Shown here: positions 14,626 through 63,435 of the stretch, piece after piece
Position numbering within the stretch: the first letter of the stretch is position 1
How the letters are laid out: every line of letters starts with the position of its first letter
From: a virus
Virus record (IMG/VR): IMGVR_UViG_3300035698_012504
Coordinates: 186,694-250,693 of that record
DNA: 64,000 nucleotides
Strand: one strand, 5' to 3'
The notes under the pieces: generated by a model
What the model saw: the letters and a program-made list of their open reading frames with translations, nothing else
Told to the model about the DNA's origin: nothing
The model's database searches: none
Program-made: the position numbers and the translations under genes

Positions 14626-14640
14626 AAATTTGTCCGTAAT
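14626..14640 (-). promoter_or_regulatory. Promoter-like motif (sense strand ..ACGGACAAATTTT..)
   Basis: aaaatttgtccgtaat, 75 nt upstream of the minus-strand gene starting at 14553. Confidence 0.4.
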
Positions 14641-14889
14641 TTTTTAGGGAAATGATTAATAAAAAAATAGAGGGTAAAAATACCCTCTATTTCCTTCTAT
14701 TTCTTTCGGCGTGTGGACTCTTCCATCTTCTTACGCTTCTCTTCTTCTAGGTCAAATTTCCATTTAATGGTATCAATAAAGAATTTATATGGCATAATCA
14801 TTATATCAGTATAATCTTGCTTCATAAGCTCCATCATAGATCTAATATTTTCTTCTAAATTCTTTTGAAATCTTTCAGATTCTTCTTGA

Positions 14890-16047
14890 TTAGACGAGTG
14901 CGACCATTCGAAAAAATTGACTTGATATTTCCACTCCCAGATCGTTTTCTGAACCACACTGTGTGCAGTTCCAAACAGCCTTAAGGTCAATACCATACTG
15001 ACCAAACTCATCTCTGAATTTTTCAATGAGTTTAATCTGATCTCTAGGTGGGAGACTTCTATACGCCATTATAATTTCTTGTCTTTCAGTAACACTGATC
15101 ATAGGGATAGTTTGACCTGGAGCATATTGATCAAATCTTTCAATGATTAATGTTTCATAAATGATATCAATCTGTGCTCTCTGAGAAAAAGGAACACTAC
15201 TCATCATTTGTTCTTCATCATGTAGAGTTGGTTGTCTTAGCGTAACAACTACATTGGATACTGGTAGTTCAAACTGAACTTTCTTTAATAGTATATCTGA
15301 ACCAAGATCCATAGTTCTAGCGAGATCTAATTCAGTAGGCTCCTGGTTTCTAACTACTGGCTCTTCAGATACTTCTGGTGCCTCCTGAAGACCCCTGAGT
15401 GACCCAGGAGTGACATCGATGTTAGATTCAGGCAAACCAGGTGGTTGAGATAGCGTAAGAGGCTTAGAAGGCTCTACAGGAGGTTCGGGAAGATCGAGCG
15501 GTTGTGTAGTTTCCTTTCCAGCATTCTTCTGTTTAATGGCTTCTTCCATTACATCATCTGGTTCAACATCATTTGATTGAGAAAGTTTATAACTTTCCTG
15601 TAAACCGTCACTACCAGGATACGAATTCATATTAAACATCTGTGAAATATTTACTTTAATGTCTTGCTTATTAGCACACTGTTTACATGTAACATTAAAA
15701 TCTGTTTCGTTTCCAAATGTGGAATGATATAATCCATATAATAGTGCGTCTCTATCTCTTACAGTAACTTGCTTTTTAAATGAATCATAGTCCTTTACTT
15801 CCGGTGGACTATTTTCTAATGCATCAAATATACATTTATTAATTGACTCTGTAGCTTTCGTTGGGGTCGTGGCTGAGTTCTTCAGCTTTGAAACCTCTGA
15901 AACATTCAAGCTCCTAACATCATAAGCCGTTCCTGTTTGTGGGGTTACAACAGAATATGTTGGGTACTTAAATTTAAATCCTCTGAATGGGGTACTCATA
16001 TTACACTCTCTCCTATTTTTCTTTTGTCTTGGCGCAGTTTGCACCAC
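14890..16047 (-). CDS. Hypothetical structural protein. The true start may be the internal Met MSTPFRG. A 109-aa ORF at 14697..15026 in another frame overlaps its 3' end.
   Basis: 385-aa ORF lying between the 272-aa structural gene and the HNH/gp25 module. Confidence 0.45.
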   Translation of the reverse strand: MVQTAPRQKKNRRECNMSTPFRGFKFKYPTYSVVTPQTGTAYDVRSLNVSEVSKLKNSATTPTKATESINKCIFDALENSPPEVKDYDSFKKQVTVRDRDALLYGLYHSTFGNETDFNVTCKQCANKQDIKVNISQMFNMNSYPGSDGLQESYKLSQSNDVEPDDVMEEAIKQKNAGKETTQPLDLPEPPVEPSKPLTLSQPPGLPESNIDVTPGSLRGLQEAPEVSEEPVVRNQEPTELDLARTMDLGSDILLKKVQFELPVSNVVVTLRQPTLHDEEQMMSSVPFSQRAQIDIIYETLIIERFDQYAPGQTIPMISVTERQEIIMAYRSLPPRDQIKLIEKFRDEFGQYGIDLKAVWNCTQCGSENDLGVEISSQFFRMVALV

Positions 16048-16126
16048 TAAATTTTAAAAGTTTCCTTCCATTGATTACATAAGCTTAAACAAGACATAAC
16101 AATATCTTATTCCCCTCATGTTTCAA

Positions 16127-16140
16127 AAATTTGTCCGTAT
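16127..16140 (-). promoter_or_regulatory. Promoter-like motif (GGACAAA core)
   Basis: aaatttgtccgtat, upstream of the gene starting at 16047. Confidence 0.4.
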
Positions 16141-16166
16141 ATATTTTAAGGGTTAATATTATATAA

Positions 16167-16202
16167 CTGGATCCTCAAGGAAATAAATCCTCAAGGATCC
16201 AG
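16167..16202 (-). terminator. Hairpin downstream of structural gene 16235..17053 (candidate terminator/attenuator)
   Basis: ctggatcc-(20 nt containing a direct repeat of atcctcaagga)-ggatccag. Confidence 0.35.
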
Positions 16203-16234
16203 CATTAATAATTGTAATAAATAAATTAATTAAA

Positions 16235-17053
16235 TTATGATGTGTATGGTGCGTAATCTCCTGACTCGGCTTCGCCATATACCTTACCAATTTCACCACC
16301 ATCGGTGACACCATTCCAAGCTTTACCATAGAATATATCAGATAGATCTTGAGCGTTACTTAATACCCAATCTTCGTGCCATAAGTAATCACAGTTAAAG
16401 TCTATATCTATTTCTAATTTATCATTAGTTGTAATATCAGAACTAAGTAAATCAGTAGGATCTTTCTTCGGGAACATACCACTCATACAAGATGCATATT
16501 CTACAAGATGACCATCAGGTTTAGTAACCCAGTAATACATTGTTGCAGCATATTCTGTCTTGATATATGCACCATCCCCATCTTTTTTTCCACCAGAGTC
16601 TAGAGGTGTAACTCCAGATCTGTAATCTCTAATCATTCTTGTCCAACCATGGAAGATAGCATGAATCGGAAGTGAAGAGAGTTCTAGGAACCTAAGTGTT
16701 ACAGTATTATCCCACTCTACATTAGTAGGGACTGCCCACTTTACTCCACCTAGTCCAACAATATCAGTAGTGTTTACTGTTCCACCAGGAATAGTAACTG
16801 ATAAACAAGTTGAATGTAGAGTACTAGCAATAGATTTAAGACCATCGTCACCTTTACCAATACCATCTGGGCCTGCGGCGTGGGATACATTATTGGCCAA
16901 TTGCTTAGGTAGGTATGAAAAATGGATGAAAAAATAACCTGAGATAAAAGGTTCTACTGCACTGTTAGTAGTACCAAACTTTCTTGTAAATCTATTTTGA
17001 AATCCGTGTAGTGATGCGAAACTATTAGAAACTGACATTATTAAATCCTCCAA
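16235..17053 (-). CDS. Virion structural protein (first gene of the minus-strand structural block; tail-tube/baseplate-like, unassigned)
   Basis: 272-aa ORF. The promoter-like motif lies 40 nt upstream, and a hairpin at 16167..16202 follows the gene on the minus strand. Confidence 0.45.
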   Translation of the reverse strand: MEDLIMSVSNSFASLHGFQNRFTRKFGTTNSAVEPFISGYFFIHFSYLPKQLANNVSHAAGPDGIGKGDDGLKSIASTLHSTCLSVTIPGGTVNTTDIVGLGGVKWAVPTNVEWDNTVTLRFLELSSLPIHAIFHGWTRMIRDYRSGVTPLDSGGKKDGDGAYIKTEYAATMYYWVTKPDGHLVEYASCMSGMFPKKDPTDLLSSDITTNDKLEIDIDFNCDYLWHEDWVLSNAQDLSDIFYGKAWNGVTDGGEIGKVYGEAESGDYAPYTS

Positions 17054-17092: not shown

Positions 17093-17106
17093 AATTTTGT
17101 CCTCAT
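17093..17106 (-). promoter_or_regulatory. Promoter-like motif (GGACAAA core)
   Basis: aattttgtcctcat, 40 nt upstream of the gene starting at 17053. Confidence 0.4.
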
Positions 17107-17338
17107 TATATGAGGGCGTCTACTTCTTTATTTCTATAATATATTAAATTCGATATGTGATACTAAATATGAAGTGAAATTCGATTCCTACTAAATATAT
17201 TAAATAGTGAGGTAGCCGAATTCTTCTTAATTCTCTATGAGAATTAAGTCCTTTTTATTCTTCGAAAAATAAATGGACCGGTCTCATGTTAGAAACCGAT
17301 CCTGAGCCACCATTGAGGGGGGAAGGCGACTCCCGCAA

Positions 17339-17352
17339 TAGTTTGTCCGCAG
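17339..17352 (-). promoter_or_regulatory. Promoter-like motif (GGACAAA core), second copy in the divergent intergenic region
   Basis: tagtttgtccgcag. Confidence 0.3.
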
Positions 17353-17435
17353 ATTTCATATTGATATGGACTATATATATTAAAACATGAGTACAGTTTT
17401 TTAGTATGTGTTACACTTTCTGAAATCGCAACACA

Positions 17436-19735: not shown

Positions 19736-20971
19736 ATGTTTAAGAAGATTATGTCGTTGGTATTAGTTTCGTTCATGGTAATCAGTTTAACTGCTGCAGC
19801 ACAATCATATGATTACTCACATAGAAAATCATCTGCTACCATCGAGGTAACAGATTTGAGTGGTAATGCTGCGCCCGGCGTGAGTGTAGAAGTCACACAG
19901 ACCGGTCACGAGTTCCTATTTGGTATGGGTCCAGGAGTATTCTATAAACCAGAACTCCTGGATAAAGTTGATGATGTCTTCAACAATGCTACACTCGGGT
20001 TGTATTGGTCTAGCTTAGAAAGCCCACAAGGTACCTATAAGTTTCCAACACTTCAGATCCAGGTAGATTGGTGCAAGACAAGAGGGTGGCCTATGAAAGG
20101 ACATCCAATTCTTTATACTATAGCACAACCAACATGGGGCGCTACGCCAGAAGCACAAATAGAACATATTAATAAACTATTAAATGAATATGCAGATGAC
20201 TTTATGTTCTGGGATACGGTGAACGAACCTATTAATAATCCTGGAATAGATATAGGATCTGTTCATTCTTATATAAGAACATTACCATACAATGACTTGA
20301 AGATAGGAATTAATGAATATGGAATCCTTGGTGGTTGGTTGAATCTTGCTACTATACTGAAAGGTGTTGGAAGCCAATTTGACTATGACTATGTAGGAAT
20401 TCAGTCTCATATTCCAGACGATAAAGAATATGATATTAATTATATAAAATCAAAGATAGAAGAATTTAATGATCTTGGAAAACCTATTCACATTAGTGAA
20501 GTATCTGTTCAGTCCGCTGGTGGAATTTGGAATGAAACCAATCAAGCAGACTATGCAGAGAAATTATATAGATTGTATTTCTCAATACCCTCAGTAGAAG
20601 TTATTACCTGGTGGAGCATTCCAGATGGAGATCCTTGGAAACCTACGATTGGATTATTCAGAACGAATGGTACATCGAAGCCAGCATTCGATAGATTGAA
20701 AAATCTTATTACAAATGAATGGTATACTAAATTAACAGTTGAATCTAATAGTGAAGGTAAAGTAATATTTAATGGGTTCCGTGGCAATTATAAAATATTG
20801 GTAGAAGACGTAGAGGTTCCGCTTACTTTAGATAAGAGTAATCCTACTGTTACAGTCGCGGTTGCTGTTGAAGTAGTTGAACCAGAACCCGATCCTGAAC
20901 CGGATCCGGAACCAGTTCCAGAACCAAAACCAAGGAAAAGATGGTGGAAATTCTGGAGATGGGGTAGATAG
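19736..20971 (+). CDS. Secreted glycoside hydrolase (clan GH-A, GH5/GH26-like) with Pro-Glu repeat linker and Trp/Arg-rich C-terminal tail
   Basis: N-terminal signal peptide MFKKIMSLVLVSFMVISLTAAAQS. VNEP catalytic acid/base motif and ISEVSV nucleophile motif. C-terminus EPEPDPEPDPEPVPEPKPRKRWWKFWRWGR. Confidence 0.6.
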   Translation: MFKKIMSLVLVSFMVISLTAAAQSYDYSHRKSSATIEVTDLSGNAAPGVSVEVTQTGHEFLFGMGPGVFYKPELLDKVDDVFNNATLGLYWSSLESPQGTYKFPTLQIQVDWCKTRGWPMKGHPILYTIAQPTWGATPEAQIEHINKLLNEYADDFMFWDTVNEPINNPGIDIGSVHSYIRTLPYNDLKIGINEYGILGGWLNLATILKGVGSQFDYDYVGIQSHIPDDKEYDINYIKSKIEEFNDLGKPIHISEVSVQSAGGIWNETNQADYAEKLYRLYFSIPSVEVITWWSIPDGDPWKPTIGLFRTNGTSKPAFDRLKNLITNEWYTKLTVESNSEGKVIFNGFRGNYKILVEDVEVPLTLDKSNPTVTVAVAVEVVEPEPDPEPDPEPVPEPKPRKRWWKFWRWGR

Positions 20972-22000: not shown

Positions 22001-22134
22001 GGAGGAGTAGCTCAGTTGGTAGAGCGCATGCCCGTAAAAATGCCCTATTCGATATTTTCCCCTTCAAGGGTTATGAGGAACAGGGTTACTTCGCAAAAAG
22101 CAAGAGGTCGCCAGTTCGAGTCTGGTCTCCTCCA
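22001..22134 (+). tRNA. tRNA gene with a ~60-nt insertion in the anticodon-loop region (candidate intron). Anticodon tentatively GTA (Tyr) if the insertion sits at the canonical 37/38 position.
   Basis: Perfect acceptor stem ggaggag/ctcctcc. Canonical D arm tagctcagttggtagagc and T arm gccagttcgagtctggt. Between them lie 75 nt instead of 17+5, namely catgc-ccgtaaa-[60 nt]-a-gcaag. Confidence 0.5.
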
Positions 22135-22192: not shown

Positions 22193-22208
22193 TTTAGGAC
22201 AAATAAAA
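22193..22208 (+). promoter_or_regulatory. Promoter-like motif (GGACAAA core) upstream of tRNA-Asn
   Basis: tttaggacaaataaaa. Confidence 0.35.
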
Positions 22209-22211
22209 AGA

Positions 22212-22287
22212 TCCGGGGTAGCTCAGTTGGTAGAGCGGGTGGCTGTTAACCATCAGGTCGCAAGTTCGAACCTTGCTCCCGGAGCCA
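22212..22287 (+). tRNA. tRNA-Asn (anticodon GTT)
   Basis: tccgggg/tcccgga acceptor, tagctcagttggtagagc, ggtgg-ctgttaa-ccatc, gcaagttcgaaccttgc, discriminator G, CCA. Confidence 0.8.
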
Positions 22288-23838: not shown

Positions 23839-23853
23839 TTTGAGGACAAACTC
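23839..23853 (+). promoter_or_regulatory. Promoter-like motif (GGACAAA core) upstream of an HNH gene
   Basis: ttttgaggacaaact. Confidence 0.35.
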
Positions 23854-23872: not shown

Positions 23873-24463
23873 ATGAGTTGGAAATCCAAAGAAGAAAGAC
23901 GCTGTATTGATTGTGATAAAAAGGGTGTTGTAGAAAGAAGACGGTGTAAGGAATGTGTTAAAGAATACAATCGAGCGCGTGCGAAGGAAAGACACGCTCG
24001 GTTGGGAAGACACAATTATGGTATATCCACATGTCCTATATGTGGAAAACCCATGACAATGTGGAGAAAGACCCAGGCAACGCATGCTACATGTATACCT
24101 AAAACGACTGGGGATTATAACTTAGTCGGGAGGTCTCCATCTGGCAGAACATTGGGTCGACAGAAGATGATTGACGCTGGCGTCGATGTCCCAACCGAAT
24201 TCGTTGTTCACCATCTGGACGAAAATCCAGATAATAACGATCTTGGGAATTTGATAGCAGTGAGGCGGTCGTCACACACAACCCTACACAGAAATCTACA
24301 GTATCATAGGTCGCTGTTCCTGAAAGAGAACAGTAAGTATTCCGAGGATTGCTGGAAACCCCTTAGAGATCATCTAACCAAAGCATGGATGGAAACGTCG
24401 AGTGCGAAGGTTCTAAAAATAGATGATATTGGGCAATCAGCAGCCGAGCCTCTAAACTCCTAA
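23873..24463 (+). CDS. HNH endonuclease
   Basis: Cys-rich N-terminus, then VVHHLDENPDNNDLGNLIAVRRSSHTTLH (HNH motif). The GGACAAA promoter-like motif lies 25 nt upstream. Confidence 0.7.
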   Translation: MSWKSKEERRCIDCDKKGVVERRRCKECVKEYNRARAKERHARLGRHNYGISTCPICGKPMTMWRKTQATHATCIPKTTGDYNLVGRSPSGRTLGRQKMIDAGVDVPTEFVVHHLDENPDNNDLGNLIAVRRSSHTTLHRNLQYHRSLFLKENSKYSEDCWKPLRDHLTKAWMETSSAKVLKIDDIGQSAAEPLNS

Positions 24464-30825: not shown

Positions 30826-31119
30826 ATGAAAAATTTGATCAGCCTATTATGGGCACCTAAAGCTGAGGACAAATATAAAGATTGGTGGAAAGTAAGAATT
30901 GGAGATTTCTGGATTAAGAGTACAAGAAATAATGAATTGATTATTACACTAAATAGATTGAAGGCTGCTAAATTCAGTTGTAGAGATGCGGCTGATCTGT
31001 TGGTAAAATCCACAAATGGATGTTTGGTAAGTAGGTATTGCAACAGACGTAGAGTTGTTGTACATGAATGCCAACCATTACGAGAAGATGGACTTCGAGA
31101 AGAATCTCCCATCAACTAA
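30826..31119 (+). CDS. Hypothetical protein
   Basis: 97-aa ORF. Confidence 0.35.
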   Translation: MKNLISLLWAPKAEDKYKDWWKVRIGDFWIKSTRNNELIITLNRLKAAKFSCRDAADLLVKSTNGCLVSRYCNRRRVVVHECQPLREDGLREESPIN

Positions 31120-31692
31120 ATATATTAAATAGTGACTAACAGGTTTCATCTTTGTGGGGGTGACCTGGTTTCGACGTGGGTGAATGGAAGGATGAGTTGC
31201 GTACCGAGGACTCCGATGGCCTCGTAAAAAATCGGAAAACGCTTAATTGCGAAAAACGTAGTAGACTTCGCTAGCCGTGTGGCTTCCAAGATCGCAGATG
31301 TTGTGGCTCCGGCCCCCGCGTTCGCACTTGCTGCCTAATCGGATGAACTAGCTGTCTCGTTCTAGACGCCCTCTATGGGATGAGACAACGACAGAGGGAC
31401 TGGACTCGGTAAGATGTAATCACTTGTAACCGAGAAGAGTACTTACTAGTGGTATAGGCGAAAGGAACCGTGCCTGACGGGTTCTGAGCTGAAACTAAAT
31501 GAAAGGCTATGTACGTAGACGCTTGTGCGGATACACTGACGGACGCGGGTTCGATCAATCTGGTCGACTTGGGAAGTAATTCCCTCGATTAAAGAGTGCT
31601 CATACGGTGAAAGCTAAGTCGTGCAATACGATAAGCCAATACCGTGGGGTTGAGGAAGAAATTCCAAAAGCCCTGTAGAGACTTATAGACAC

Positions 31693-32136
31693 CTAACTCT
31701 CACTGAGACATGGTGTACTAGGATGGAAAAATTCTTCCTGAAATTGTTCCTTTGCTATAGTGGCGGCGTTGTTGTACTTCCCATTCCGTGGGGTTACTTC
31801 AATATACCGATCTATCAGAAGATCGGTACGTCGGATCTTATCCGGTTCTCGGAGATAAGGTCGAAGTTGTTCTAGGAATTGTATGGCCTTCCTACCTTGT
31901 ATTGCCCAAACAAACGACGGTTTGTGGTGATCTTTGTAGGTTTTCTTATGGGATATGCACCCACCATAATTGGCTTTCATGAACTCTAGTAGTTCATACG
32001 TTGTGCTTGCAATAGAAACAATGGGTCTTCTCCATAGATCTGATCGTTTCTGTTTGGTCACCGTTACACTTCCTTCGCCATCAAACAACCCAGCAGCATA
32101 GGAATCATTCAGTTGTGAATCTTTCATAATACGCAC
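31693..32136 (-). CDS. LAGLIDADG homing endonuclease (single-motif, I-CreI-like)
   Basis: YAAGLFDGEGSV motif. 147 aa, typical of homodimeric LAGLIDADG enzymes. A promoter-like TTTGTCC motif lies 20 nt upstream inside the intron. Confidence 0.8.
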   Translation of the reverse strand: MRIMKDSQLNDSYAAGLFDGEGSVTVTKQKRSDLWRRPIVSIASTTYELLEFMKANYGGCISHKKTYKDHHKPSFVWAIQGRKAIQFLEQLRPYLREPDKIRRTDLLIDRYIEVTPRNGKYNNAATIAKEQFQEEFFHPSTPCLSES

Positions 32137-32151: not shown

Positions 32152-32165
32152 TAGTTTGTCCTCAT
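32152..32165 (-). promoter_or_regulatory. Promoter-like motif (GGACAAA core) inside the tmRNA intron, upstream of the LAGLIDADG ORF
   Basis: tagtttgtcctcat. Confidence 0.4.
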
Positions 32166-37405: not shown

Positions 37406-37951
37406 ATGGATGTCGGAGTGTTCCTAGGAAGAATGTGCCCTATTCATTTAGGACACCAACATGTTATAGAAAAAATGAGATTAGACTATGGCCGAGATTA
37501 TCTTATAATACTAGGAAGTTCAAATGAAATTATTACTCATAGAAACATATTTTCTTACAGGCAGAGGACATCGTACATTAGAATGGTGTATGGGGAAACT
37601 GCCCGTCTAATAGGATTGGGGGATCATGGTGGAAGAAACTTTCTTGATGACTTGGCTGAGTGGCTTGCCGAACTAAAAGATACAATTAAATTAGCTTTTT
37701 ATGGGCAAGATGTTCATCCAATATTTTATAGTGGAAGTGAATTTGATATTAGTTTCTTTGTTAATAATGATATGAGATTTAAGATAGTAAATAGAACTGG
37801 GCCTGGCTCTTATGATGTAGCCGGAGAAGATATAAGAAAACATCTGTTGCGTGAGGAACATGATCAATTAGGAGGACTCCTTGATCCGAGAATTATTCCT
37901 CATGTATTAACTGATTTCGAACAAAACCTAAAAATCCTTTTGTCTATGTAA
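37406..37951 (+). CDS. nadM: Nicotinamide/nicotinate mononucleotide adenylyltransferase (NadM/NadR-type nucleotidyltransferase)
   Basis: The N-terminal GRMCPIHLGH matches the GxFxPxHxGH signature. A later GEDIRKHL segment is SxTxIR-like. 181 aa, the size of archaeal/bacterial NMNATs. Confidence 0.6.
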   Translation: MDVGVFLGRMCPIHLGHQHVIEKMRLDYGRDYLIILGSSNEIITHRNIFSYRQRTSYIRMVYGETARLIGLGDHGGRNFLDDLAEWLAELKDTIKLAFYGQDVHPIFYSGSEFDISFFVNNDMRFKIVNRTGPGSYDVAGEDIRKHLLREEHDQLGGLLDPRIIPHVLTDFEQNLKILLSM

Positions 37952-37984
37952 ACGCAAAACCCAAAGTAGGGAAGGACATTATAT

Positions 37985-39454: not shown

Positions 39455-39457
39455 GTT

Positions 39458-40169: not shown

Positions 40170-40196
40170 TATTCATACATGCGTAAGACAAGAGGA

Positions 40197-40238
40197 GAGA
40201 GGCCCTAAACAGATATTGATTGGGCCTCTCATTTTTTG
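40197..40238 (+). terminator. Rho-independent terminator
   Basis: gagaggccc-(16 nt)-gggcctctc followed by attttttg. Confidence 0.7.
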
Positions 40239-40250
40239 AAAGGAAAGGAT

Positions 40251-41789: not shown

Positions 41790-41790
41790 T

Positions 41791-43722
41791 ATGCAATTAT
41801 GTAAAATTGGCACAACATGTATCTCAACATTAGTGGGTGATTTCGAAGGGAATGTGAATAGAATAATTAGTGCAATTAAACTTGCCGAGAGACAAGGTGT
41901 ACAGATTCTAGTAACTCCAGAGTTGGGAGTAACCGGATATAGTCTGGGGGACCGAGTTCTTTGGGATGATATTGAATTGAAGTGCGAAGAAGCTATGCGA
42001 AAAATAAAAGAGCATTGTTCTAAAGTTACTGTGTTTGTTGGTCTTCCGATATTCGCAGATGGAAAAATATATAATGGAATGGTTTGTATTTGTGGTAGAA
42101 AGTATTGTGGGGGATTTCTAAAAGCCCACCTACCAAGTTATAATATATTTTATGAAACAAGAAATTGGTCTCCGTATGATGGAGAAGATAGCATACATCA
42201 TGATTTATATGGATACTTAGGTCATAATATTATAGAAATTGGTGGGGTTAAAATATTTGGGGAAATATGTGAAGATGTTTGGGCGAATTCCCAGACTGTT
42301 TCTCAAGCAGTTAGTGGAGAAAATGGAGCCGTACTCGTTGTCAATGGTAGTGCTTCTCCATTCTCACCACAAAAGAATGTATCTAGAATGAAATTGATTC
42401 AGACAACTGCACAAAAAAATATATGCGTATATGCATATGCAAATCAATTAGGATTAGACGAAGGCAGGACTGTATTCGATGGTGGTGGAATCATCGCATC
42501 TCCGGATGGTATATTGTCTGCTGGGAAAATACTTAGTGATGCTGCGTTTACTATTAACACTGCCGTAGTAGATTTTGATAAGATAAGAAGACAAAGAAGA
42601 GAAAACAATACATGGAAATCTATAAAATCGAAACATATGTCGCGGATCCATAGCGAATATACCAAACCTATTTTAACAAATTATCAACTGATAAAAGAAA
42701 TGCTAGAATGCGATAGATACAAAGAAGCACATTACTCTTCTGCAATAGATGAACGCCAAATATTTAAGGCATTATCTCTTGCGTTAAGAGATTATTTTAT
42801 TAAGGCTGGTTGTTTTAATCATATCCTAATTGGTCTATCTGGAGGTAGAGATAGCGCATTATGTCTATTGGCTGCCCATACTGCAGTTCATAGCATGGGT
42901 AAACTCCCATCCGAAATAATAAAGACAGTGTATTTAGATCATAGTAGAAATAGTAGTGACAGAACAAAACAAGCAGCAATTGCTTTAGCTGGGGCACTAT
43001 GTATTCCGATTGAAGTAGTTAATATTGACGAAGCATCTGATATATCAAACACATTCGCGCATGATATGTTAAAGAAAAGTTCTAATCTTGATAATCCTCC
43101 GTTGGATCGAATCACTATGCAAAATACACAGGCAAGAGTTCGTGGGGCATTCATGCTCAACTGGGCAAATGCAATAGGTGGATTAGTAATAGTAACTGCG
43201 AATATGAGTGAAACTGCTGTGGGATATTGTACGACCGGTGGAGACAATCAAGGCGGGTATTCACTCCTAACAAATGTTCCGAAGACTATGGTTAATTCCA
43301 TTCTAGTTGACAGAACCATTGTATACAAACCAATGGGGAATCCTATTTCAAAAGCCATTCGAGAAATATTGAATATGAAACCAAGTGCAGAACTGGAACC
43401 AGATCAAACAGATGAAGATGATCTAATGCCATATCAAGTATTGGATAATTTACTAGTATTATATATAAAAGAAAGAAGACCAATAATAGAATGTTTAGAA
43501 ATTCTGAAGGTGATGTACGAAGTTGATTTTTATATATTTGGAAAGCTGACTAAATATTGTAAACGATTTATTCAGATGTTAGTTAAAAATCAATGGAAGA
43601 GAGACCAGCATCCAGTGGGTCCAAGAGTAATGGACTTCGATCTCGATCCAAAAACTGGATTCAGATTCCCAGTACTCCAAGTACTAGAGGAAGATCTTGA
43701 GTCACTAGAAGGGAAGTTATGA
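41791..43722 (+). CDS. nadE: Glutamine-dependent NAD+ synthetase (N-terminal nitrilase/CN-hydrolase domain + C-terminal NAD synthetase PP-loop domain)
   Basis: CN-hydrolase triad context VTPELGVTGY ... ICEDVW. PP-loop LIGLSGGRDSALC. ATG at 41791 after GGAGGGA. Confidence 0.8.
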   Translation: MQLCKIGTTCISTLVGDFEGNVNRIISAIKLAERQGVQILVTPELGVTGYSLGDRVLWDDIELKCEEAMRKIKEHCSKVTVFVGLPIFADGKIYNGMVCICGRKYCGGFLKAHLPSYNIFYETRNWSPYDGEDSIHHDLYGYLGHNIIEIGGVKIFGEICEDVWANSQTVSQAVSGENGAVLVVNGSASPFSPQKNVSRMKLIQTTAQKNICVYAYANQLGLDEGRTVFDGGGIIASPDGILSAGKILSDAAFTINTAVVDFDKIRRQRRENNTWKSIKSKHMSRIHSEYTKPILTNYQLIKEMLECDRYKEAHYSSAIDERQIFKALSLALRDYFIKAGCFNHILIGLSGGRDSALCLLAAHTAVHSMGKLPSEIIKTVYLDHSRNSSDRTKQAAIALAGALCIPIEVVNIDEASDISNTFAHDMLKKSSNLDNPPLDRITMQNTQARVRGAFMLNWANAIGGLVIVTANMSETAVGYCTTGGDNQGGYSLLTNVPKTMVNSILVDRTIVYKPMGNPISKAIREILNMKPSAELEPDQTDEDDLMPYQVLDNLLVLYIKERRPIIECLEILKVMYEVDFYIFGKLTKYCKRFIQMLVKNQWKRDQHPVGPRVMDFDLDPKTGFRFPVLQVLEEDLESLEGKL

Positions 43723-43883
43723 ATTGTCCTAATTGTAATGAACCATATACCTCTAAAGAAATAGAGGATTCCGGGGAACCATTTAATTGTCATATGTGTG
43801 GATCAGAACTAATAACAAGTGGCCCCAAATTAAAAACGGTTAAAGCGGTGATGAATGAAACTGAACCAGAGGATTTTCAATGA
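43719..43883 (+). CDS. 54-aa zinc-ribbon protein
   Basis: MNCPNCNEPY...FNCHMCGSEL, two CxxC pairs. ATGA overlap with the nadE stop. Confidence 0.4.
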   Translation: MNCPNCNEPYTSKEIEDSGEPFNCHMCGSELITSGPKLKTVKAVMNETEPEDFQ

Positions 43884-44188
43884 ACAAAGAGCGGGACGAA
43901 TTAATAAAACTTGCATTAGATGTAGAGGAAGAAGTAACATTAAAAATAATAAGACCGGCACATATAATAATTTTTGAACCAAAAGATATAATTGATATTT
44001 ATAAAAGACATAGTGAACATAATGAAGAAATAGATATTTCTGAAGCAGCTTTATTATTGGATCAACTAATGGATGATATGGAAGCTGAGATCACCCCTAT
44101 AATTGAAGAACGGATATTTGAATTACTATCCCAACAACGAGAGGACAACGCCAATGGGAACCAAGACGGAGATTTTTCCACCGATTAA
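43880..44188 (+). CDS. Acidic hypothetical protein
   Basis: 102-aa ORF. Confidence 0.35.
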   Translation: MNKERDELIKLALDVEEEVTLKIIRPAHIIIFEPKDIIDIYKRHSEHNEEIDISEAALLLDQLMDDMEAEITPIIEERIFELLSQQREDNANGNQDGDFSTD

Positions 44189-44528
44189 AACTGAAACCAG
44201 TCTTTCTTATTTCGGATTCAAAACGAGATACGGAATATTATTTAAAGTTTACTTACCAGAAGCAAATGAAATTCGAGAAATAAATATAACCAAACCAATA
44301 TTTGTGGTAAAAAATGGGGTTAGAAGTATGAGAGAACAAGCGAAGGTTTCTTTGTGTGAGCCGACTGCAGTGTTCCGTGGCGGGGATTTAATGATAATGA
44401 CTAAGATGATGAAGATTGCAGCAGTTGTTGCGAAGAGATTAGAAGATGAGGAAGACGCAACTACGTTGATAAAGGGTACTGTCAATTACAAACGATTTAA
44501 AGAATTAGCTGGAGCGGAACCATTATAG
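44154..44528 (+). CDS. Hypothetical protein. It ends at a TAG that is in frame with the downstream DHH gene.
   Basis: ORF 44103..44528 in the track. The internal ATG at 44154 fits the overlap better. Confidence 0.35.
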   Translation: MGTKTEIFPPIKTETSLSYFGFKTRYGILFKVYLPEANEIREINITKPIFVVKNGVRSMREQAKVSLCEPTAVFRGGDLMIMTKMMKIAAVVAKRLEDEEDATTLIKGTVNYKRFKELAGAEPL

Positions 44529-44609
44529 GAGAATGTCATAGAGGAAGATAGCAAAAATGTTTTAGAAGGGATTTTTGAAAATTCTGTAGGTAAGTCGGCT
44601 GCAATTTTC

Positions 44610-45563
44610 ATGCATAGAAATCCCGATCCTGATTCATTAGGTGCAGCCATATGTATGAAGTTTATATTATCAAATAAATTTGGGATTCATCCAACTATAT
44701 TTTTAGAAGGTGAGGTTAGTCATTTACAAAATCAAACGATGGTTAATATATTATCAATTCCTCTCATCAAGGTAGAAGAATATAAAAAAGATGAATTCGA
44801 TTTTGTAATAATTTTAGATACTACAACAAAGAATTCATTTCCAGATGAGTCAATTTTAACAATAGATCACCATAGGTCTGGAGATAGTAACGCGGCCAAT
44901 TCTCAAATAGAAGAAATAGGATCGACTTGTACTTTCATGTGGGAACATATGAAAGCTCTCAATTTAATAGAATTGGATGAAGATCAATCAATAAGAACTG
45001 CCCTAGTTTGTGGTATAGTTACAGATACTAATTTTCTAATCGAGCCTACTGTAACCAATAGAGATCAGGCAGCATATCAAGAACTAGTTCAAAATGTAGA
45101 TAAGAAAAAGTTAGATACTTTTCTCAATTATCCACTCCCTACTTATTACTTTGATCTTGAACGAAAAGTATTTGAGCCAGATAATTTTATAGAAGATGAT
45201 ACGTTTTTTATTGGTGGGACGGGGATTATTAGTGATGCCAGGCGGGATGTGATTCCTATGATTGCGGATAGGCTTCTTCGGAAACAAGGAATCGACACGG
45301 TATTCATATTTGGAATAATAGGAACCAGTCTTGTCTTTAGTGTTAGAAGTAAAAATTCATCGTTAGATGTTAATACATTCTGCCAGAAGGCCACCAACAC
45401 AAAGGCGAGTGGTGGAGGAAAACAAGGAATGGGTGGAGGTAGGATTTCATTGGCGGGTATTTATGAAACAACTTATCCAGATGAGCTGAAGGCTCACTTC
45501 TGGACATACGTCAAAGGAAGTATGTTTCATAGAGTTTCTAGCCTCCTATCAGGCGAACTATAA
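44610..45563 (+). CDS. DHH/DHHA1-family phosphoesterase (NrnA-like nanoRNase / pAp phosphatase fold)
   Basis: MHRNPDPDSLGAA (motif I), ILDTTTKN, TIDHHRSGD (DHH motif), C-terminal GGGK...G motif of DHHA1. The true N-terminus may lie upstream: the frame is open back to the TAG at 44526. Confidence 0.65.
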   Translation: MHRNPDPDSLGAAICMKFILSNKFGIHPTIFLEGEVSHLQNQTMVNILSIPLIKVEEYKKDEFDFVIILDTTTKNSFPDESILTIDHHRSGDSNAANSQIEEIGSTCTFMWEHMKALNLIELDEDQSIRTALVCGIVTDTNFLIEPTVTNRDQAAYQELVQNVDKKKLDTFLNYPLPTYYFDLERKVFEPDNFIEDDTFFIGGTGIISDARRDVIPMIADRLLRKQGIDTVFIFGIIGTSLVFSVRSKNSSLDVNTFCQKATNTKASGGGKQGMGGGRISLAGIYETTYPDELKAHFWTYVKGSMFHRVSSLLSGEL

Positions 45564-45631: not shown

Positions 45632-47350
45632 TTATACAACGAAGAAGTTCAGGTGAATTTGTTCAACAACCCTTGTCGGATTGAGAGTAATATTCGCTTG
45701 GATTCTCTTCGCTTTAATGTCATACTCAGATGCACCAACAGTAACACCAAATGAATATAATCCTCTTCTGTCTTGAACTGTCTTCAAGAAAGCAGAGATG
45801 TTATTGCTAATTGCACCCCAGGTTGCGGTATCGTTTAATTCAAATATATAGAATCTGCAGAACTGTTCTAGAGCACGCTTAATATAAAGAATCAATCTCA
45901 TAATATTAAGATCCTGTAGTGCAGTTGGTCTTACCTGTGAAGTAAGTTGTCCATAAACTGTGAATCCTACATTAAATTTAACAATTGGGTTAATCTGTTT
46001 CAGGTAGAATTGATCTCTCTGAGACAGGTTCGGGCTGAATCTTAGTTCTTGAATCTGAGCAATTGTCGCTCTGTTAAATCCAGCTGGAGCATACCAAAGT
46101 TCTGCAATGTTATCCGTGTAAGGAATTATATTTGCCATGTGGTATACAGGAGTCATCCAAAGATAACGTCCAGTAAACTTATCAAATATTTTTGAATATG
46201 GTTCATATATCGCAGCGTATCTAGTATTAATACCGTAGGTATCACCTCCAGATTCTGATCTAGAATCGTATGCTGCTTGATAGTTAACGTTGTCGCCATT
46301 ATCAATTATAGCAATACAATCCTGTCTTAGATCGCGGGTTAATTCTACAATGTTTCTCTTGACATTTGTGCTGTATCCACCGTCAAACACTATATTAAAA
46401 TAGTGGTCTTCTGTATCAATAACAGATTCTAATGCTTGACCCGTTAATGGGTTTGTAATGTCACCAGTGTATGCTAATGATAATATTGAATCACCAACAG
46501 TTGTAGTTACTGCTCCGTTTGCATCAAATAGAGATCCAGTTGATCCGTTCTCTAGATTAAGTGCGCCATCTAGGAATGGTATATCAAACTCACAAGATCC
46601 TTCTACTGCTGCTAAGCAGGCTACTTCATCTGCAATACAATTTAAATGTCTACTATATCTATTAACAATATCTTCGATCCACATGGACTCACCGTCGTCG
46701 TCAAGTCTTGTGCTTAAGAAAGATACCATATAGGTTTCAATTATCTCAAATTGATCAGCGCCTGTATCTGGATTTACATCGTTTTGTTTTTCATATACAT
46801 CCATTACATAAATGTCTGGTTTATCAGTTTGGACAGTTGTATTTGCTGGTTTTGTTATTTCAACTCTAAACCTATCATACCAATCACCACGACCAACTCC
46901 ATAAAACACACAGCATGTATCTTCTGAGCCTGTCTCATAAGTATTAGTAAGTAGTGTTGATAGTTCGTTTAATGTATTAACTCCTGCTTCAGATGTGGCG
47001 ACTGCGGATGCTGTACCATCAGCGCCGTACTCACCAGCTCTTTCAGCCATTAATATCAAGTTTGAATATGCAGCGTCTGTCGGAAGACATCTAACTACAT
47101 ATAGGGAATCAGATTGTTTCAAGAACGAATCTGCTACATACGGTCCTTGACCGAATGCCTTTTTCGCATAGGTGATATCTGGTCTACCGAAGTCTAGATA
47201 AAAGTCTCTAGCATTAGTGAAGATCAGTTGATTATCCGGACCATGCTCGGAAATGATGCAAATGAAACCAATGGTTGATGGTACATTTTGCACGAATTCA
47301 GACAGGTCTATAATCTTAGTATATACACCTGGAGAAATATGTTGTGCCAT
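45632..47350 (-). CDS. Contractile tail sheath protein
   Basis: The N-terminus MAQHISPGVYTKIIDLSEF...GFICIISEHGP...FGRP matches the conserved sheath N-terminus (SPGV..E.D.S......G...G.F.GP). 572 aa. Confidence 0.85.
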   Translation of the reverse strand: MAQHISPGVYTKIIDLSEFVQNVPSTIGFICIISEHGPDNQLIFTNARDFYLDFGRPDITYAKKAFGQGPYVADSFLKQSDSLYVVRCLPTDAAYSNLILMAERAGEYGADGTASAVATSEAGVNTLNELSTLLTNTYETGSEDTCCVFYGVGRGDWYDRFRVEITKPANTTVQTDKPDIYVMDVYEKQNDVNPDTGADQFEIIETYMVSFLSTRLDDDGESMWIEDIVNRYSRHLNCIADEVACLAAVEGSCEFDIPFLDGALNLENGSTGSLFDANGAVTTTVGDSILSLAYTGDITNPLTGQALESVIDTEDHYFNIVFDGGYSTNVKRNIVELTRDLRQDCIAIIDNGDNVNYQAAYDSRSESGGDTYGINTRYAAIYEPYSKIFDKFTGRYLWMTPVYHMANIIPYTDNIAELWYAPAGFNRATIAQIQELRFSPNLSQRDQFYLKQINPIVKFNVGFTVYGQLTSQVRPTALQDLNIMRLILYIKRALEQFCRFYIFELNDTATWGAISNNISAFLKTVQDRRGLYSFGVTVGASEYDIKAKRIQANITLNPTRVVEQIHLNFFVV

Positions 47351-47416: not shown

Positions 47417-47431
47417 ACAATTTGTCCTCAA
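47417..47431 (-). promoter_or_regulatory. Promoter-like motif (GGACAAA core) upstream of the tail sheath gene
   Basis: acaatttgtcctcaa. Confidence 0.4.
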
Positions 47432-60829: not shown

Positions 60830-60846
60830 ATCGGTTGTATGCTCCT

Positions 60847-61668
60847 TTAATCGCTAAAGTATTTCTCAAATGCTGAGTTTATAGTAATATATACTTTTTT
60901 AATACCCGATCTACTTGAGATAGCCATTCGATTGTTATTAAATATAACTCCCATTATAGAAACTAATTCCTTTATCTGATTTTCAGATGATACTGAAATA
61001 GGTCTAGGTACTGTTGCTGATTGAAACACTAAATCATAATCAAATATTCCGTTCTCGTCTAGGTATATTTGAGTTTTTGCTGTGGCCCAATCTTCATCTA
61101 GTTCCGAATATAATTCAAGGTCTTCCATTGGATTATTTTCATATATACTATTATACTCTTGTATTGCTGTTGGAATTCCAAATGGGATCATATTATATTT
61201 AATTATCGTTATTAATACTGCAAGCTTCACTTCTTCTAATTCATAATTAAGTATAAATGCTAAAACTATAGCAGACATTAGATCTTCATTTAAAACAGAA
61301 GCAAACATCCTAGGTATAGATGTTAATTGTTCAACCTCCGCTGCCGTTTCACAATCTAATGCTCGCTTCATTCTAGAATTTGTAATAACAGTATCGGCAT
61401 TTTCTTTTAAACGTGTTAATAACTCATCTGCATCATCGGACCCTTCATCAAAGTCAAAAATAAATGTAGACATATTCGCTTTTAAATCAGCTATTGTTGT
61501 TACCGTAGTGGTTGGGTCTCCCTCGAATGAATCTATAAATGTATCTATTGTTTCCACCATAAATTCTATTTGGCTATAATAACTGACCAACTTTGAGATT
61601 ATCTCTGATAATCCCACATACCCGATATTTACATCGACAGCCATCAGTAATATATTATTTAATGCCAT
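60847..61668 (-). CDS. Hypothetical virion protein
   Basis: 273-aa ORF. Promoter-like motif 33 nt upstream. Confidence 0.4.
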   Translation of the reverse strand: MALNNILLMAVDVNIGYVGLSEIISKLVSYYSQIEFMVETIDTFIDSFEGDPTTTVTTIADLKANMSTFIFDFDEGSDDADELLTRLKENADTVITNSRMKRALDCETAAEVEQLTSIPRMFASVLNEDLMSAIVLAFILNYELEEVKLAVLITIIKYNMIPFGIPTAIQEYNSIYENNPMEDLELYSELDEDWATAKTQIYLDENGIFDYDLVFQSATVPRPISVSSENQIKELVSIMGVIFNNNRMAISSRSGIKKVYITINSAFEKYFSD

Positions 61669-61696
61669 TATAATATTTCTCTCTTTCTATTTATCA

Positions 61697-61711
61697 AAAA
61701 TTTGTCCGCAA
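61697..61711 (-). promoter_or_regulatory. Promoter-like motif (GGACAAA core)
   Basis: aaaatttgtccgcaa. Confidence 0.4.
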
Positions 61712-61828
61712 ATAGATTGGACATTTCTTTTTCTATATATTATTAAAAAGGGCCGGATTCAATAGAATCCGACCCTTCCAATAATTTAAACAATTATTAT
61801 ATGATAAGGAAGGAGTTCCTTATTATTC

Positions 61829-63346
61829 TTATGCCTTGGCTTTTCTAGCCTGCCAAGATGAAATCTTGTTCTGGATAGAACGTCTGCATTTCTCAGGATT
61901 CTTAGCATCTTTACATGCGCGAGACTGAGAGCGTAGGGCTTTAATTGCTTGGTCAGCAGCTTGTCCACGATTCTTACCAGAACCTTTAGCTTTCTTATAT
62001 GCTAAAGCTCCTGCGGCAGAAGCTGCGGCCACGCCTGTAACAGCCAACCCAACTTTACCAGCTTTGGATTTCATAGCCTTGGCAACGTTACCAGCTGCGT
62101 TGGACAATCCTTTTCTCATTTTACCAACTTTTTCATTTCCTTTAACTGCACCAATTTTACCAGTTACATAACTCTTGGCACCAGCAGCTTTTCTAGCAAC
62201 ATAACCAGCTTTATCTTTAGCTACGGCCTTGATTTTATGTTTTCCAAGAGCTGTGCCTGTTCTAGATACAGCATTACCTGCTCTAGTTGCGCCTTTACCA
62301 GCAAGTGCTGCAGCTCTCTTACCACCTTTTACTGCAAGATTTTTAGCAGCTATAATCTGTTTTCTTACAGCTTCTATCATTTTACCAATTCTTTCTCTAG
62401 CAGCACCGGCTGCCTTACTTAACTTGGCTCTTAACTCTTTAAGTTTCAGCTGAAGCTTCCATACCGTACCTCTAACTTTAGAGTCTGTTACGGAACCACC
62501 AGAACGGCTGGATGTAGCAGTATACTCGGATAGTTCAATCTGACTCCACTCTTCAAGAATTGATGGGCTTCCTTCAATTTCAAAGATCTTGTTTGATTCA
62601 ACTATTAACTCAGTAACTTGTTGGATAGATGGGGTAAGATTATGAGTACCATATGCTAGATTATATTGAATTGCTTCATCTATAATGTAAGCCATTACTG
62701 ATTCATCAGTAATAGACCATCTTTCAAATAATGATCTAAGTCCAGCAACATCTAAGTCACCTTCTTCTAGTACATATATATCTTCGTCATCATCCTCGTA
62801 GTCTTCTGCTAACAGATCTTCGTCGAGATCTAAGTCTTGAGCACCTTCGGATAAATAAGAAATAAGATTCTCATTTACACGACCAGTAGATTCAGTAACA
62901 TATCCGTCACTAATATCTTCTGTTAATGATGCTTCGCCTTCAGTTTCATATCTTAATTTGGCTTCTTCAAGGGACAAAGCTACCTCATAAGTAACAAGAT
63001 CTAAAGAGACGGGGGCGTCGGCTTCTTCAAGATAATCGGGCTCAAGGGCTCCAATCATCTCAAGAATTGGTTGAATTGTTTCGTTCATAAAATTGGCAAT
63101 GTGCTCTTCTTTAAATACAGTATTCTCAATGACTTCCAAATGCCGAAGCTTATCTTCTGCTGGAGTGGAACTCTCCAATACTATACCACGAAGAGAATCT
63201 CTCATCGCTTCTTCTGTAAGAAAATCAAGCTCGGCATATATTTCAGAATCTGATTCGTCAATATCAATACCGTCTTCTATTCCTTGAAGGACTCCGTCAC
63301 TGCCTTCAGTGAGATAAAAGTCCAAAATTTCAAATTGCTTACTCAT
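61829..63346 (-). CDS. Virion protein with acidic N-terminal half and very basic Lys/Ala-rich C-terminal half
   Basis: 505-aa ORF. Promoter-like motif about 80 nt upstream. Confidence 0.4.
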   Translation of the reverse strand: MSKQFEILDFYLTEGSDGVLQGIEDGIDIDESDSEIYAELDFLTEEAMRDSLRGIVLESSTPAEDKLRHLEVIENTVFKEEHIANFMNETIQPILEMIGALEPDYLEEADAPVSLDLVTYEVALSLEEAKLRYETEGEASLTEDISDGYVTESTGRVNENLISYLSEGAQDLDLDEDLLAEDYEDDDEDIYVLEEGDLDVAGLRSLFERWSITDESVMAYIIDEAIQYNLAYGTHNLTPSIQQVTELIVESNKIFEIEGSPSILEEWSQIELSEYTATSSRSGGSVTDSKVRGTVWKLQLKLKELRAKLSKAAGAARERIGKMIEAVRKQIIAAKNLAVKGGKRAAALAGKGATRAGNAVSRTGTALGKHKIKAVAKDKAGYVARKAAGAKSYVTGKIGAVKGNEKVGKMRKGLSNAAGNVAKAMKSKAGKVGLAVTGVAAASAAGALAYKKAKGSGKNRGQAADQAIKALRSQSRACKDAKNPEKCRRSIQNKISSWQARKAKA

Positions 63347-63421
63347 TATTAATTCCTCCTATTTAATTGCAGGATATTTGCACTTATTTTTGTTTTACGT
63401 TATTATAAAGCAAAACCTTTA

Positions 63422-63435
63422 TAATTTGTCCTCAA
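63422..63435 (-). promoter_or_regulatory. Promoter-like motif (GGACAAA core)
   Basis: taatttgtcctcaa. Confidence 0.4.

Follow-up and report, generated by a model that had tools for sequence, protein, structure and literature searches.

A conserved GGACAAA element as the probable core of a phage-specific late promoter in uncultured jumbo phages

The heptamer GGACAAA recurs ahead of structural, tRNA and endonuclease genes in a 64,000-nt stretch of viral DNA (hereafter the window), and a preliminary description read it as a phage-specific promoter. Does its placement bear this out, where would transcription begin, and what would read the element? Our analysis of the window and of related genomes suggests that it is very probably the core of a phage-specific promoter for late genes that lacks a -35 element, with a phage-encoded reader as the most likely one.

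Placement of GGACAAA in the window

The window contains 15 copies of GGACAAA against 8.6 expected, a weak enrichment above chance (at least 15 copies were seen in 3 of 100 shuffles). Non-coding DNA makes up 11.6% of the window and holds 10 of the 15 copies (binomial P = 8e-7), and a ranking of all 7-mers placed GGACAAA at the top of the intergenic list (10 vs 0.9 expected). The ten copies listed in the preliminary description, which spoke of about ten, are all present and are the intergenic ones; five more, unlisted there, lie within ORFs (Table 1). The copy given at 22198 occupies 22197-22203. All ten intergenic copies are oriented with the downstream gene, as had been claimed. A PWM scan of the window returned zero degenerate intergenic copies, and the heptamer is therefore considered invariant. 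Terminator-like hairpins were found immediately preceding sites in the window.

A distance of 15-80 nt to the gene start, as first described, does not apply to site 5, which ends 8 nt before tRNA-Asn, or to site 4, which has no ORF nearby and is followed by a structured RNA of ~72 nt. Site 7 had been placed inside a tmRNA intron; however, the Rfam tmRNA is complete, and the HNH gene preceded by this site lies downstream of it, between tmRNA and tRNA-Pro.

Table 1. GGACAAA copies and associated RNA features of the window (L numbers denote clade loci)
Feature	Position	Strand	Sequence	Context
Site 1	14629..14635	-	ttacGGACAAAttttaaag	Upstream of HNH endonuclease gene 13783-14553 and baseplate operon; terminator-like hairpin 14665-14692 ~30 nt upstream
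Site 2	16130..16136	-	atacGGACAAAtttttgaaac	Upstream of baseplate hub gene 14890-16047; orthologous hub sites in L017, L019, L021, L023
Site 3	17096..17102	-	atgaGGACAAAattgtaaac	Upstream of tail tube gene 16235-17053; orthologous tube sites in L017, L021, L022, L023, and in L019 with variant GGACAtA
Site 4	17342..17348	-	ctgcGGACAAActattG	No ORF downstream; precedes structured small RNA
Candidate small RNA, ~72 nt	17265..17336	-		First base is G at motif position 13 of site 4; terminator at 17275-17302
Site 5	22197..22203	+	tttaGGACAAAtaaaaaga	tRNA-Asn (22212-22287) starts at motif position 16
Site 6	23844..23850	+	ttgaGGACAAActcttaaAAGGAG	SD from motif position 15; ATG of HNH gene 23873-24463 at position 30
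Site 7	32155..32161	-	atgaGGACAAActataaac	Upstream of HNH endonuclease gene 31693-32136; likely ATG 32127
Site 8	47421..47427	-	ttgaGGACAAAttgtaaag	Upstream of tail sheath gene 45632-47350; orthologous sheath sites in L019, L021, L022
Site 9	61701..61707	-	ttgcGGACAAAtttttgataaa	After terminator-like hairpin; upstream of gene 60847-61668; downstream operon includes 2751-aa ORF; orthologous site L111:2439
Site 10	63425..63431	-	ttgaGGACAAAttataaag	Upstream of 505-aa gene 61829-63346; ortholog L111:727 precedes 28%-identical homolog
Ambiguous 11th copy	30867..30873	+	ctgaGGACAAAtataaag	Good flank; within two short ORFs that exclude each other; tmRNA 290 nt downstream
tmRNA	31164-31557			Complete (Rfam, model positions 1-374)
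Copies within ORFs	10813, 51878	-		
Copies within ORFs	17465, 30867, 62972	+		

The candidate RNA behind site 4 has a predicted fold of -31.4 kcal/mol (z = -4.2), with UUCCCCCCUCAAU in the loop of hairpin 1 and a terminator formed by hairpin 2 and a T-run, which was independently called as such. No family match to it was found in Rfam; L017, L022 and L023 retain it, with covariation in the stems. Site 4 may represent a complete promoter-RNA-terminator unit, conserved in four genomes.

Conservation of the element across the clade

The conserved block, A-GGACAAA-Y-T-w-T-A-A-A (~15 bp), is found ahead of the sheath, tube, hub and gp25 orthologs of no fewer than nine further genomes of uncultured jumbo phages. 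These relatives range from 27 to 45% GC, share 40-65% protein identity and have intergenic DNA that is elsewhere unalignable; tube, hub, gp25 and sheath orthologs in L017, L019, L021, L022 and L023 carry the element within flanks that cannot be aligned (gene calls at several loci were crude longest-ORF calls). In a pool of six genomes that had been picked through protein homology and independently of the motif, 29 of the 44 GGACAAA copies fell in the 8.9% of DNA that is non-coding (P = 2.4e-20). Within tandem gene pairs the pooled copies were co-oriented with the genes in 19 of 19 cases (P = 1.9e-6); ten further copies fell in divergent regions, and convergent regions had none. Back-to-back divergent pairs of elements occur in L073 and L023. 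Over 255 kb of clade sequence, GGACAAAC was enriched 68-fold in intergenic DNA. Matches to the motif followed by an SD numbered seven, in five loci, in a 236-kb genome, and were present at five loci in a 223-kb genome, compared with about one in each unrelated contig. The element is intergenic, co-oriented with and upstream of transcription units, and kept while its flanks diverge, as is generally expected of a phage-specific promoter.

A sister subclade uses AGAACAAA(t/a)wTAAA throughout at the equivalent places, a switch of one base (GGACAAA vs GAACAAA). A second clade-wide motif, TAATATATATAG, is AT-rich. Because the GGACAAA block is shared by phages of 27-45% GC, their hosts are probably different. 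The clade consists of uncultured jumbo myoviruses and is known from metagenomes only; its contigs measure 150-335 kb and come from many habitats.

Layout of the element and position of the start site

Logo information is restricted to columns -1..+15, and neither the 33-site nor the 53-site logo contains a -35 element. About 20 sites in the 53-site logo came from searches keyed on the motif itself, so that their downstream conservation is partly circular; the 33-site logo, free of any site from motif-keyed scans, gives the same columns. Conserved flanks had been noted before, but their main part, the downstream yTwTAAA, had been missed. The TAAA half is looser in the window, where four of the ten sites match exactly and the rest are 1-nt spacing variants. 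At motif position 13 a purine (A or G) is present in 52 of 53 sites.

SDs start 6-10 nt past the heptamer, at motif positions 13, 15, 17, 17 and 17 in five sites, and start codons are found anywhere between 26 and ~150 nt from the motif. Since one SD begins at position 13, tRNA-Asn at 16 and the small RNA at 13, the predicted transcription start must lie within or near TAAA. A start inside TAAA would put GGACAAA at roughly -12 to -6, with initiation at a purine within TAAA (motif positions 12-14), and it excludes TATAAA as a -10 box of the sigma70 or T4 late type. A T4-type -10 box at TwTAAA was likewise ruled out by the SDs, tRNA and small RNA, which start 0-4 nt after it. Ordinary sigma70/sigma-A promoters (TTGACA-N16-18-TATAAT) were not enriched relative to shuffles (57 vs 58.6; 69 vs 75.5), none coincided with the sites, and no -35 conservation was seen.

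In every sequence-level test applied, the outcome favoured the original proposal of a phage-specific promoter, as with intergenic placement, uniform co-orientation, clade-wide conservation and the lack of coincidence with sigma70 sites. Its targets would be the late (virion) genes together with free-standing homing-endonuclease genes, a small RNA and one or more tRNAs; the timing is suggested by gene content, namely sheath, tube, hub, gp25, virion proteins and free-standing HNH genes. From the observed location, orientation and conservation, and from the bound on the start site, we infer promoter function, late timing and a phage-encoded reader; the consensus would be a new one for phage late promoters, of a known kind.

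Candidate readers and comparison with known promoters

Conservation of the motif across 27-45% GC, together with the use of AGAACAAA throughout the sister subclade, makes a phage-encoded specificity determinant most likely, and this determinant would co-evolve with the motif. Candidates are a sigma-like factor able to work without contacting a -35 and an RNA polymerase of the phage. Searches for RNA polymerase, sigma and gp55-like genes were negative both in the window and across ~260 kb of clade DNA, which covered at most ~45% of any one genome, the window genome being the best sampled (~66 of 152 kb). AR9 RNAP subunits had no tblastn match in the window or any clade locus, Rpb1/Rpb2 Pfam models had none in the precomputed annotations of five 20-kb loci, and no T7-like RNAP gene was seen. 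PHROGs families for sigma, gp55 and gp33 were absent among 20 window ORFs, and those for sigma and gp55 among the best 25 of 71 families in a pooled scan of 93 ORFs. A phage-modified or phage-encoded RNA polymerase, as originally suggested, is plausible as the reader, although the gene search was negative in the clade DNA sampled.

Chance, compositional artefact or a dispersed mobile repeat is effectively refuted: the whole-window count alone is marginally above chance, but the pooled intergenic placement (P = 2e-20), the orientation in 19 of 19 cases and the conservation in genomes of 27-45% GC all stand against it, and because only ~15 nt are shared between unrelated flanks the element is not a repeat. 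It is improbable that the motif is an operator for a late activator or repressor, with host RNAP starting at a nearby ordinary promoter. Short conserved activator sites do lie upstream of late genes in P2 Ogr and Mu C-type systems, but the present site is asymmetric, lacks a dyad, and occurs once per gene, always in one orientation; no second conserved element is found in -45..+27, SDs beginning 6-10 nt past the heptamer leave no space for a separate -10 box and start, and sigma70-like sites are neither enriched nor co-located. A role in RNA, either as a site of RNase processing or as a signal in the 5'-UTR of longer transcripts, appears very improbable. Co-oriented sites in 5' regions would be transcribed given read-through, and processing might account for the one directly before a tRNA, but sites also sit directly after terminator hairpins, form the divergent pairs described above and precede non-translated RNAs, with no conserved structure attached and a widely varying distance to the start codon (26 to ~150 nt).

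The reader of the element may tentatively be sought in a phage sigma-like protein that guides host core RNAP to GGACAAAYT as a -35-free -10 element, either through region 2 alone, as T4 gp55 does, or as a relative of sigma-F/G. Bacillus sigma-F has a -35 of GYATA 14-15 nt upstream of the -10. GGACAAAYTw matches the sigma-F -10 consensus GGnnAnAHTR (PMC11599450) at every specified position (G1, G2, A5 and A7 invariant; H8 in 53/53 sites, T9 in 50/53, R10 in 35/53), and T4 gp55 is an established minimal sigma reading -35-free late promoters (mentioned in PMC5312081). Strong use of SDs further suggests SD-using hosts such as Firmicutes. However, the sigma-F -35 is absent (of the 53 sites, 3-5 show G where it is expected; columns -20..-15 below 0.25 bit), the additional conserved TAAA is foreign to sigma-F, and a -10 ending at position 9-10 predicts a start around 16-18, which is too far downstream, truncating several SDs and falling inside tRNA-Asn. 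The ORF scans gave no sigma or gp55 match (20 window ORFs; best 25 of 71 families from the 93-ORF pool), and a host sporulation sigma is unlikely because the motif is kept in phages of very different GC content.

AR9 late promoters have the consensus AACA-(6N)-T-A/G+1 with AACA at -11..-8, essential template dU at -11 and -10, and a template strand read by a non-virion multisubunit RNAP with gp226 as specificity subunit (PMC5312081, PMC7598289). It seems unlikely that the element is a late promoter of a homologous phage polymerase, with ACA at -10..-8, the start at position 13 and TAATATATATAG as the early promoter of a virion RNAP. In its favour are the invariant ACA, the purine at position 13 in 52 of 53 sites, the missing -35 element, the full AACA of the sister subclade, the resemblance of the second AT-rich motif to the AR9 early consensus AAATATATATTAT, the lack of sigma70 enrichment, and the proteins: AR9/PBS1 is the best cultured sheath match (30%), and five tail/virion proteins match AR9. 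But other virion proteins do not point to AR9, the -11 equivalent is G rather than A in all 53 sites (G-A-C-A in the window and its subclade), T stands at -1 in 9 of 53 sites and A in 44, and neither AR9 RNAP subunit homologs in ~260 kb of clade DNA nor Rpb1/Rpb2 Pfam matches in the annotated loci were found. A 5-nt spacing instead gives T-A at the equivalents of AR9 -1/+1. It is rather unlikely that the motif is read by a non-canonical transcription machine of the phage, be it a strongly diverged AR9-like RNAP acting on a single-stranded ACA-containing element or an unrecognised -35-independent specificity factor. If true, and with TAATATATATAG as early promoter, it would imply a two-promoter, largely host-independent transcription programme, invisible to current annotation, in a large, globally distributed clade of uncultured jumbo phages.

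Predicting the late promoters of jumbo phages is usually difficult, and a review states that bioinformatics fails on those of RNAP-encoding members. The present clade has a sharp 15-bp signal. It could directly mark the limits of late transcription units, help to spot members of the clade in metagenomes, lead to non-coding genes like the conserved small RNA with its C-rich loop, and act as bait for the cognate sigma factor or polymerase. The GGACAAA and GAACAAA subclades offer a natural specificity pair for the study of promoter-polymerase co-evolution.

Compared with known systems, the element resembles AR9 late promoters in being compact (about -12..+1), in lacking a -35, in having ACA ~8-10 nt before a purine start and in preceding virion genes and a tRNA. 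In many cases a second promoter-like motif, AT-rich, is located upstream of it, an arrangement also seen at the 'continuously expressed' genes of AR9. It differs from AR9 late promoters in its far higher information content (GGACAAA and yTwTAAA), in the unconserved T at -1 and in that no msRNAP genes were detected in the DNA sampled. T4 late promoters carry TATAAATA at -10, start ~6 nt downstream and depend on gp55/gp33/gp45. They share with the present element a single -35-free block upstream of virion and free-standing homing-endonuclease genes, and about half of our sites contain TATAAA; unlike in T4, the terminal TA of TATAAATA (positions 15-16) is unconserved, the dominant block is GGACAAA, and no gp55-like protein was found. 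Promoters of the T7/T3/SP6 single-subunit RNAPs are longer (~23 bp vs ~15 bp), and the phages here are jumbo myoviruses in which no T7-like RNAP gene was seen, yet the element shares with them a contiguous conserved block across the start site and, as in the T7 group, a consensus that differs by one base between related phages (GGACAAA vs GAACAAA).

Placement of GGACAAA in the window and its gene context

The recurrence of GGACAAA reported in the preliminary description was confirmed. The heptamer was found 15 times in the window (8.6 expected), a number reached in 3 of 100 shuffles, so the raw count itself was unremarkable. Ten of the 15 copies were located in non-coding DNA, which makes up 11.6% of the window (P = 8e-7). 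When all intergenic 7-mers of the window were ranked, GGACAAA came top with 10 copies versus 0.9 expected, and none of its one-mismatch intergenic variants there exceeded the score threshold. All ten intergenic copies point at the downstream gene, as had been claimed, and terminator-like hairpins immediately precede several of them. The listed copies all exist, with 22198 corrected to 22197, and the rule that they lie shortly upstream of gene starts fails for the site at 17342, around which there is no ORF within 80 nt. For the site at 32155, the HNH gene that follows had been placed inside a tmRNA intron; this proved wrong, because the tmRNA, although not called by ARAGORN, is complete in the Rfam alignment (102 bits, covering model positions 1-374), and the HNH gene stands by itself, with the tmRNA on one side and tRNA-Pro on the other.

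The five copies within ORFs lacked shared flanks, except for an ambiguous one at 30867. The flank of this copy (ctgaGGACAAAtataaag) resembles a promoter well. It is situated 290 nt before the tmRNA, where it is covered by two short ORFs that overlap and exclude each other; should this stretch be non-coding, as it may, the copy would count as an 11th functional site.

The window (37% GC) encodes a contractile-tail phage, together with several HNH homing endonucleases, NAD-salvage enzymes, 11 tRNAs and the tmRNA (see table). Nucleotide searches returned no matches to the window among deposited phages. Its tube protein, itself on a 152-kb contig, belongs to a large metagenomic family with several members on 200-335 kb contigs, and we therefore assign the phage to an uncultured jumbo-phage clade. 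The nearest cultured relative of the sheath was Bacillus AR9/PBS1 (30% identity), and five tail or virion proteins of the window gave weak AR9 matches. The baseplate wedge matched Flavobacterium and cyanophage myoviruses, not AR9, and a 505-aa protein had no match among cultured phages. The NAD-related cluster and the GH10-like gene are of the auxiliary metabolic type that very large phages typically carry. Directly upstream of the tRNA-Asn promoter site, a 134-nt Rfam tRNA match (48 bits; not called by ARAGORN) may represent a tRNA gene interrupted by an insertion or an intron.

Coordinates of features in the window and, where prefixed, in loci of relatives
Feature	Position	Strand
Baseplate wedge	8493-11321	minus
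Baseplate hub	14890-16047	minus
Tail tube	16235-17053	minus
Tail sheath	45632-47350	minus
2751-aa ORF (among the structural genes)		
Candidate small RNA	17265-17336	minus
Candidate small RNA homologs	L017:5609-5690; L023:9806-9890; L022:9861-9950	
TAATATATATAG motif, window	17371-17384; 61733-61746; 17134-17150	minus
TAATATATATAG motif, window	23367	plus
TAATATATATAG motif, relatives	L017:5071; L019:7136; L022:4205 and 5018; L001:1265; L002:2048	
20-mer CTAAATATATTAAATAGTGA	17191-17210; 31116-31135	plus
GGACAAA copy in short ORFs	30867-30873	plus
tmRNA	31164-31557	plus
HNH gene	31693-32136	minus
tRNA match (Rfam)	22001-22134	plus
GH10 xylanase-like gene	19736-20971	
NAD-related cluster (cytidylyltransferase-like, NAPRTase, glutamine-dependent NAD synthase, with DHH phosphoesterase)	37406-45563	plus
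Small-gene array	L023:323-9738	minus
316-aa ORF (RNA_pol_A_CTD)	L022:11431-12381	minus

Conservation across relatives

Loci of relatives were chosen for comparison by protein homology alone: L017/L018 (65% tube identity), L019/L020 (201-kb contig, 28% GC), L021 (236 kb, 27% GC), L022 (335 kb, 45% GC) and L023 (306 kb, 33% GC). The same element was present, co-oriented, before orthologous tube, hub, gp25-like and sheath genes, in surrounding intergenic DNA that was unalignable. Individual genomes carried 3-5 intergenic copies, with non-coding DNA making up 5-11% of the sequence (P from 4e-6 to 0.017). With six genomes pooled, 29 of 44 copies lay in the 8.9% of DNA that is non-coding (P = 2.4e-20), all 19 copies between same-strand gene pairs were co-oriented (P = 1.9e-6), and divergent regions held 10 copies, convergent regions none. 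Across 255 kb of clade DNA, GGACAAAC occurred 21 times in intergenic versus three times in coding sequence, a 68-fold enrichment.

Further genome regions were sampled by two motif-keyed IMG/VR scans, which gave five loci in a 223-kb genome, seven matches at five loci in the 236-kb genome (L021) and single matches in unrelated contigs; a first viral scan with a 17-mer had returned mostly an unrelated contig family of ~55% GC, with single matches each. Intergenic copies in the newly sampled regions all face the next ORF, including those in back-to-back divergent pairs. In the literature, the GGACAAA string was encountered in primer sequences only. Ahead of an unbroken one-strand array of ~30 similar-sized small genes (~100-125 aa each) on L023 stands a GGACAAA site (agaGGACAAAatatttta), arranged back-to-back with those on the tube side.

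Absence of the motif from the first relatives retrieved (IMG/VR, JGI, ~50% identity) was considered and rejected, as their upstream regions carry a one-base variant. At equivalent places, loci L001-L005 and L008 (43-51% sheath/tube identity) have AGAACAAA(t/a)wTAAA in place of AGGACAAA. Within each genome this variant is used uniformly, suggesting that it co-evolves with the polymerase or specificity factor recognising the motif (the reader).

Motif anatomy and associated elements

The logo built from 33 sites, none of them from the motif-keyed scans, reads t-R-A-GGACAAA-Y-T-w-T-A-A-A. With 53 sites, information was confined to positions -1 to +15 relative to the first G, and no column from -45 to -2 exceeded 0.25 bit, so a -35 element is absent. 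Several window sites have a CCC(T/A) block 11-14 nt ahead of them; considered as a -35-like element, it was dropped because it is not conserved across the clade. At five sites, Shine-Dalgarno sequences start at motif positions 13, 15, 17, 17 and 17; the first base of tRNA-Asn falls on position 16, and that of a structured RNA downstream of site 17342 on G13. From these, we infer that transcription must start within or adjoining TAAA (positions 11-14), and GGACAAA would then span roughly -12 to -6. TwTAAA is thereby excluded as the -10 box of a sigma70 or T4-late promoter, since either would put the start near position 20-22. A reading as Bacteroidetes TAnnTTTG on the opposite strand was rejected: it would drive antisense transcription, and strong Shine-Dalgarno use argues against such hosts.

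The structured RNA is a candidate small RNA of ~72 nt a short way upstream of the tube gene (-31.4 kcal/mol, z = -4.2), comprising one hairpin with a UUCCCCCCUCAAU loop and a second that is an intrinsic terminator. It matched no Rfam family. In L017 and L023, where the tube gene has two tandem sites upstream, the corresponding unit comes after the promoter-distal one; in L022 it comes after the single site present there. Over the four genomes, 4 of 7 stem pairs change on both sides and the CCCCUCA loop is invariant; this loop is complementary to the Shine-Dalgarno-like GAGGGG, and the RNA may act as an anti-Shine-Dalgarno regulator. Such a complete motif-RNA-terminator cassette is difficult to account for if the motif is anything other than a promoter. 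We consider GGACAAA very probably a promoter; sequence analysis, as far as it goes, supports the phage-specific promoter proposed in the preliminary description, and an operator, RNA-processing or chance explanation is unlikely.

Another intergenic motif that recurs across the clade, (t)TAATATATATAG(t), was 6-10-fold enriched in non-coding DNA, was present even in the 45%-GC genome and often lay 25-45 nt upstream of a GGACAAA site. It is a candidate early promoter and resembles the early consensus of the AR9 vRNAP, AAATATATATTAT. The 20-mer CTAAATATATTAAATAGTGA occurs in two identical copies, the second of which starts 48 nt before the tmRNA gene; it may represent a strong version of this AT-rich promoter-like element. 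The GGACAAA motif exposed both the conserved small RNA and the candidate early promoter, and gives practical access to the transcription programme of a group of phages that only metagenomes have revealed.

Candidate readers and known promoter systems

Searches for the reader extended over no more than ~45% of each genome, the window genome being represented by ~66 of its 152 kb. A phage sigma-like factor working with the host core is a possible reader, which we put forward tentatively. The motif fully matches the sigma-F -10 consensus, GGnnAnAHTR (PMC11599450); the sigma-F -35 element, GYATA, is absent from its sites, and the start that a sigma-F reading predicts would lie too far downstream. 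Sigma70-type promoters were not enriched anywhere in the window, and PHROGs revealed no sigma, gp55-like or RNAP families among 20 window ORFs, nor among the best 25 of 71 families matched by 93 pooled ORFs. In L022 (335 kb), the tube gene adjoins a 316-aa ORF that carries an RNA_pol_A_CTD domain and matches Sigma70_r4 faintly; this ORF was rejected as the core factor for want of a homolog in the other clade DNA examined, and may be a lineage-specific transcription factor mimicking the RNAP alpha subunit.

An AR9-like phage RNAP appears a rather doubtful reader, and the probability remaining after these two falls to other readers. Homologs of AR9 RNAP subunits were not detected by tblastn in the window and the sampled clade DNA, nor sigma, gp55-like or RNAP families by Pfam on large ORFs; a DFDGD motif scan was uninformative, AR9 itself having no literal match in these frames. 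In AR9, late promoters read AACA-(6N)-T-A/G(+1) and are recognised by the phage non-virion RNAP, and early promoters read AAATATATATTAT-(6N)-G (PMC5312081, PMC7598289). The present motif differs in having G rather than A at the equivalent of the essential -11 and in not keeping T(-1). It shares with the AR9 late promoters a compact layout without -35 and an ACA core, together with a purine at the +1 equivalent in 52 of 53 sites, and, as in AR9, an AT-rich early-like element (TAATATATATAG) occurs alongside it. The GGACAAA consensus is new and would represent a phage-specific late promoter without -35, conserved across an uncultured jumbo-phage clade and of a kind already known.
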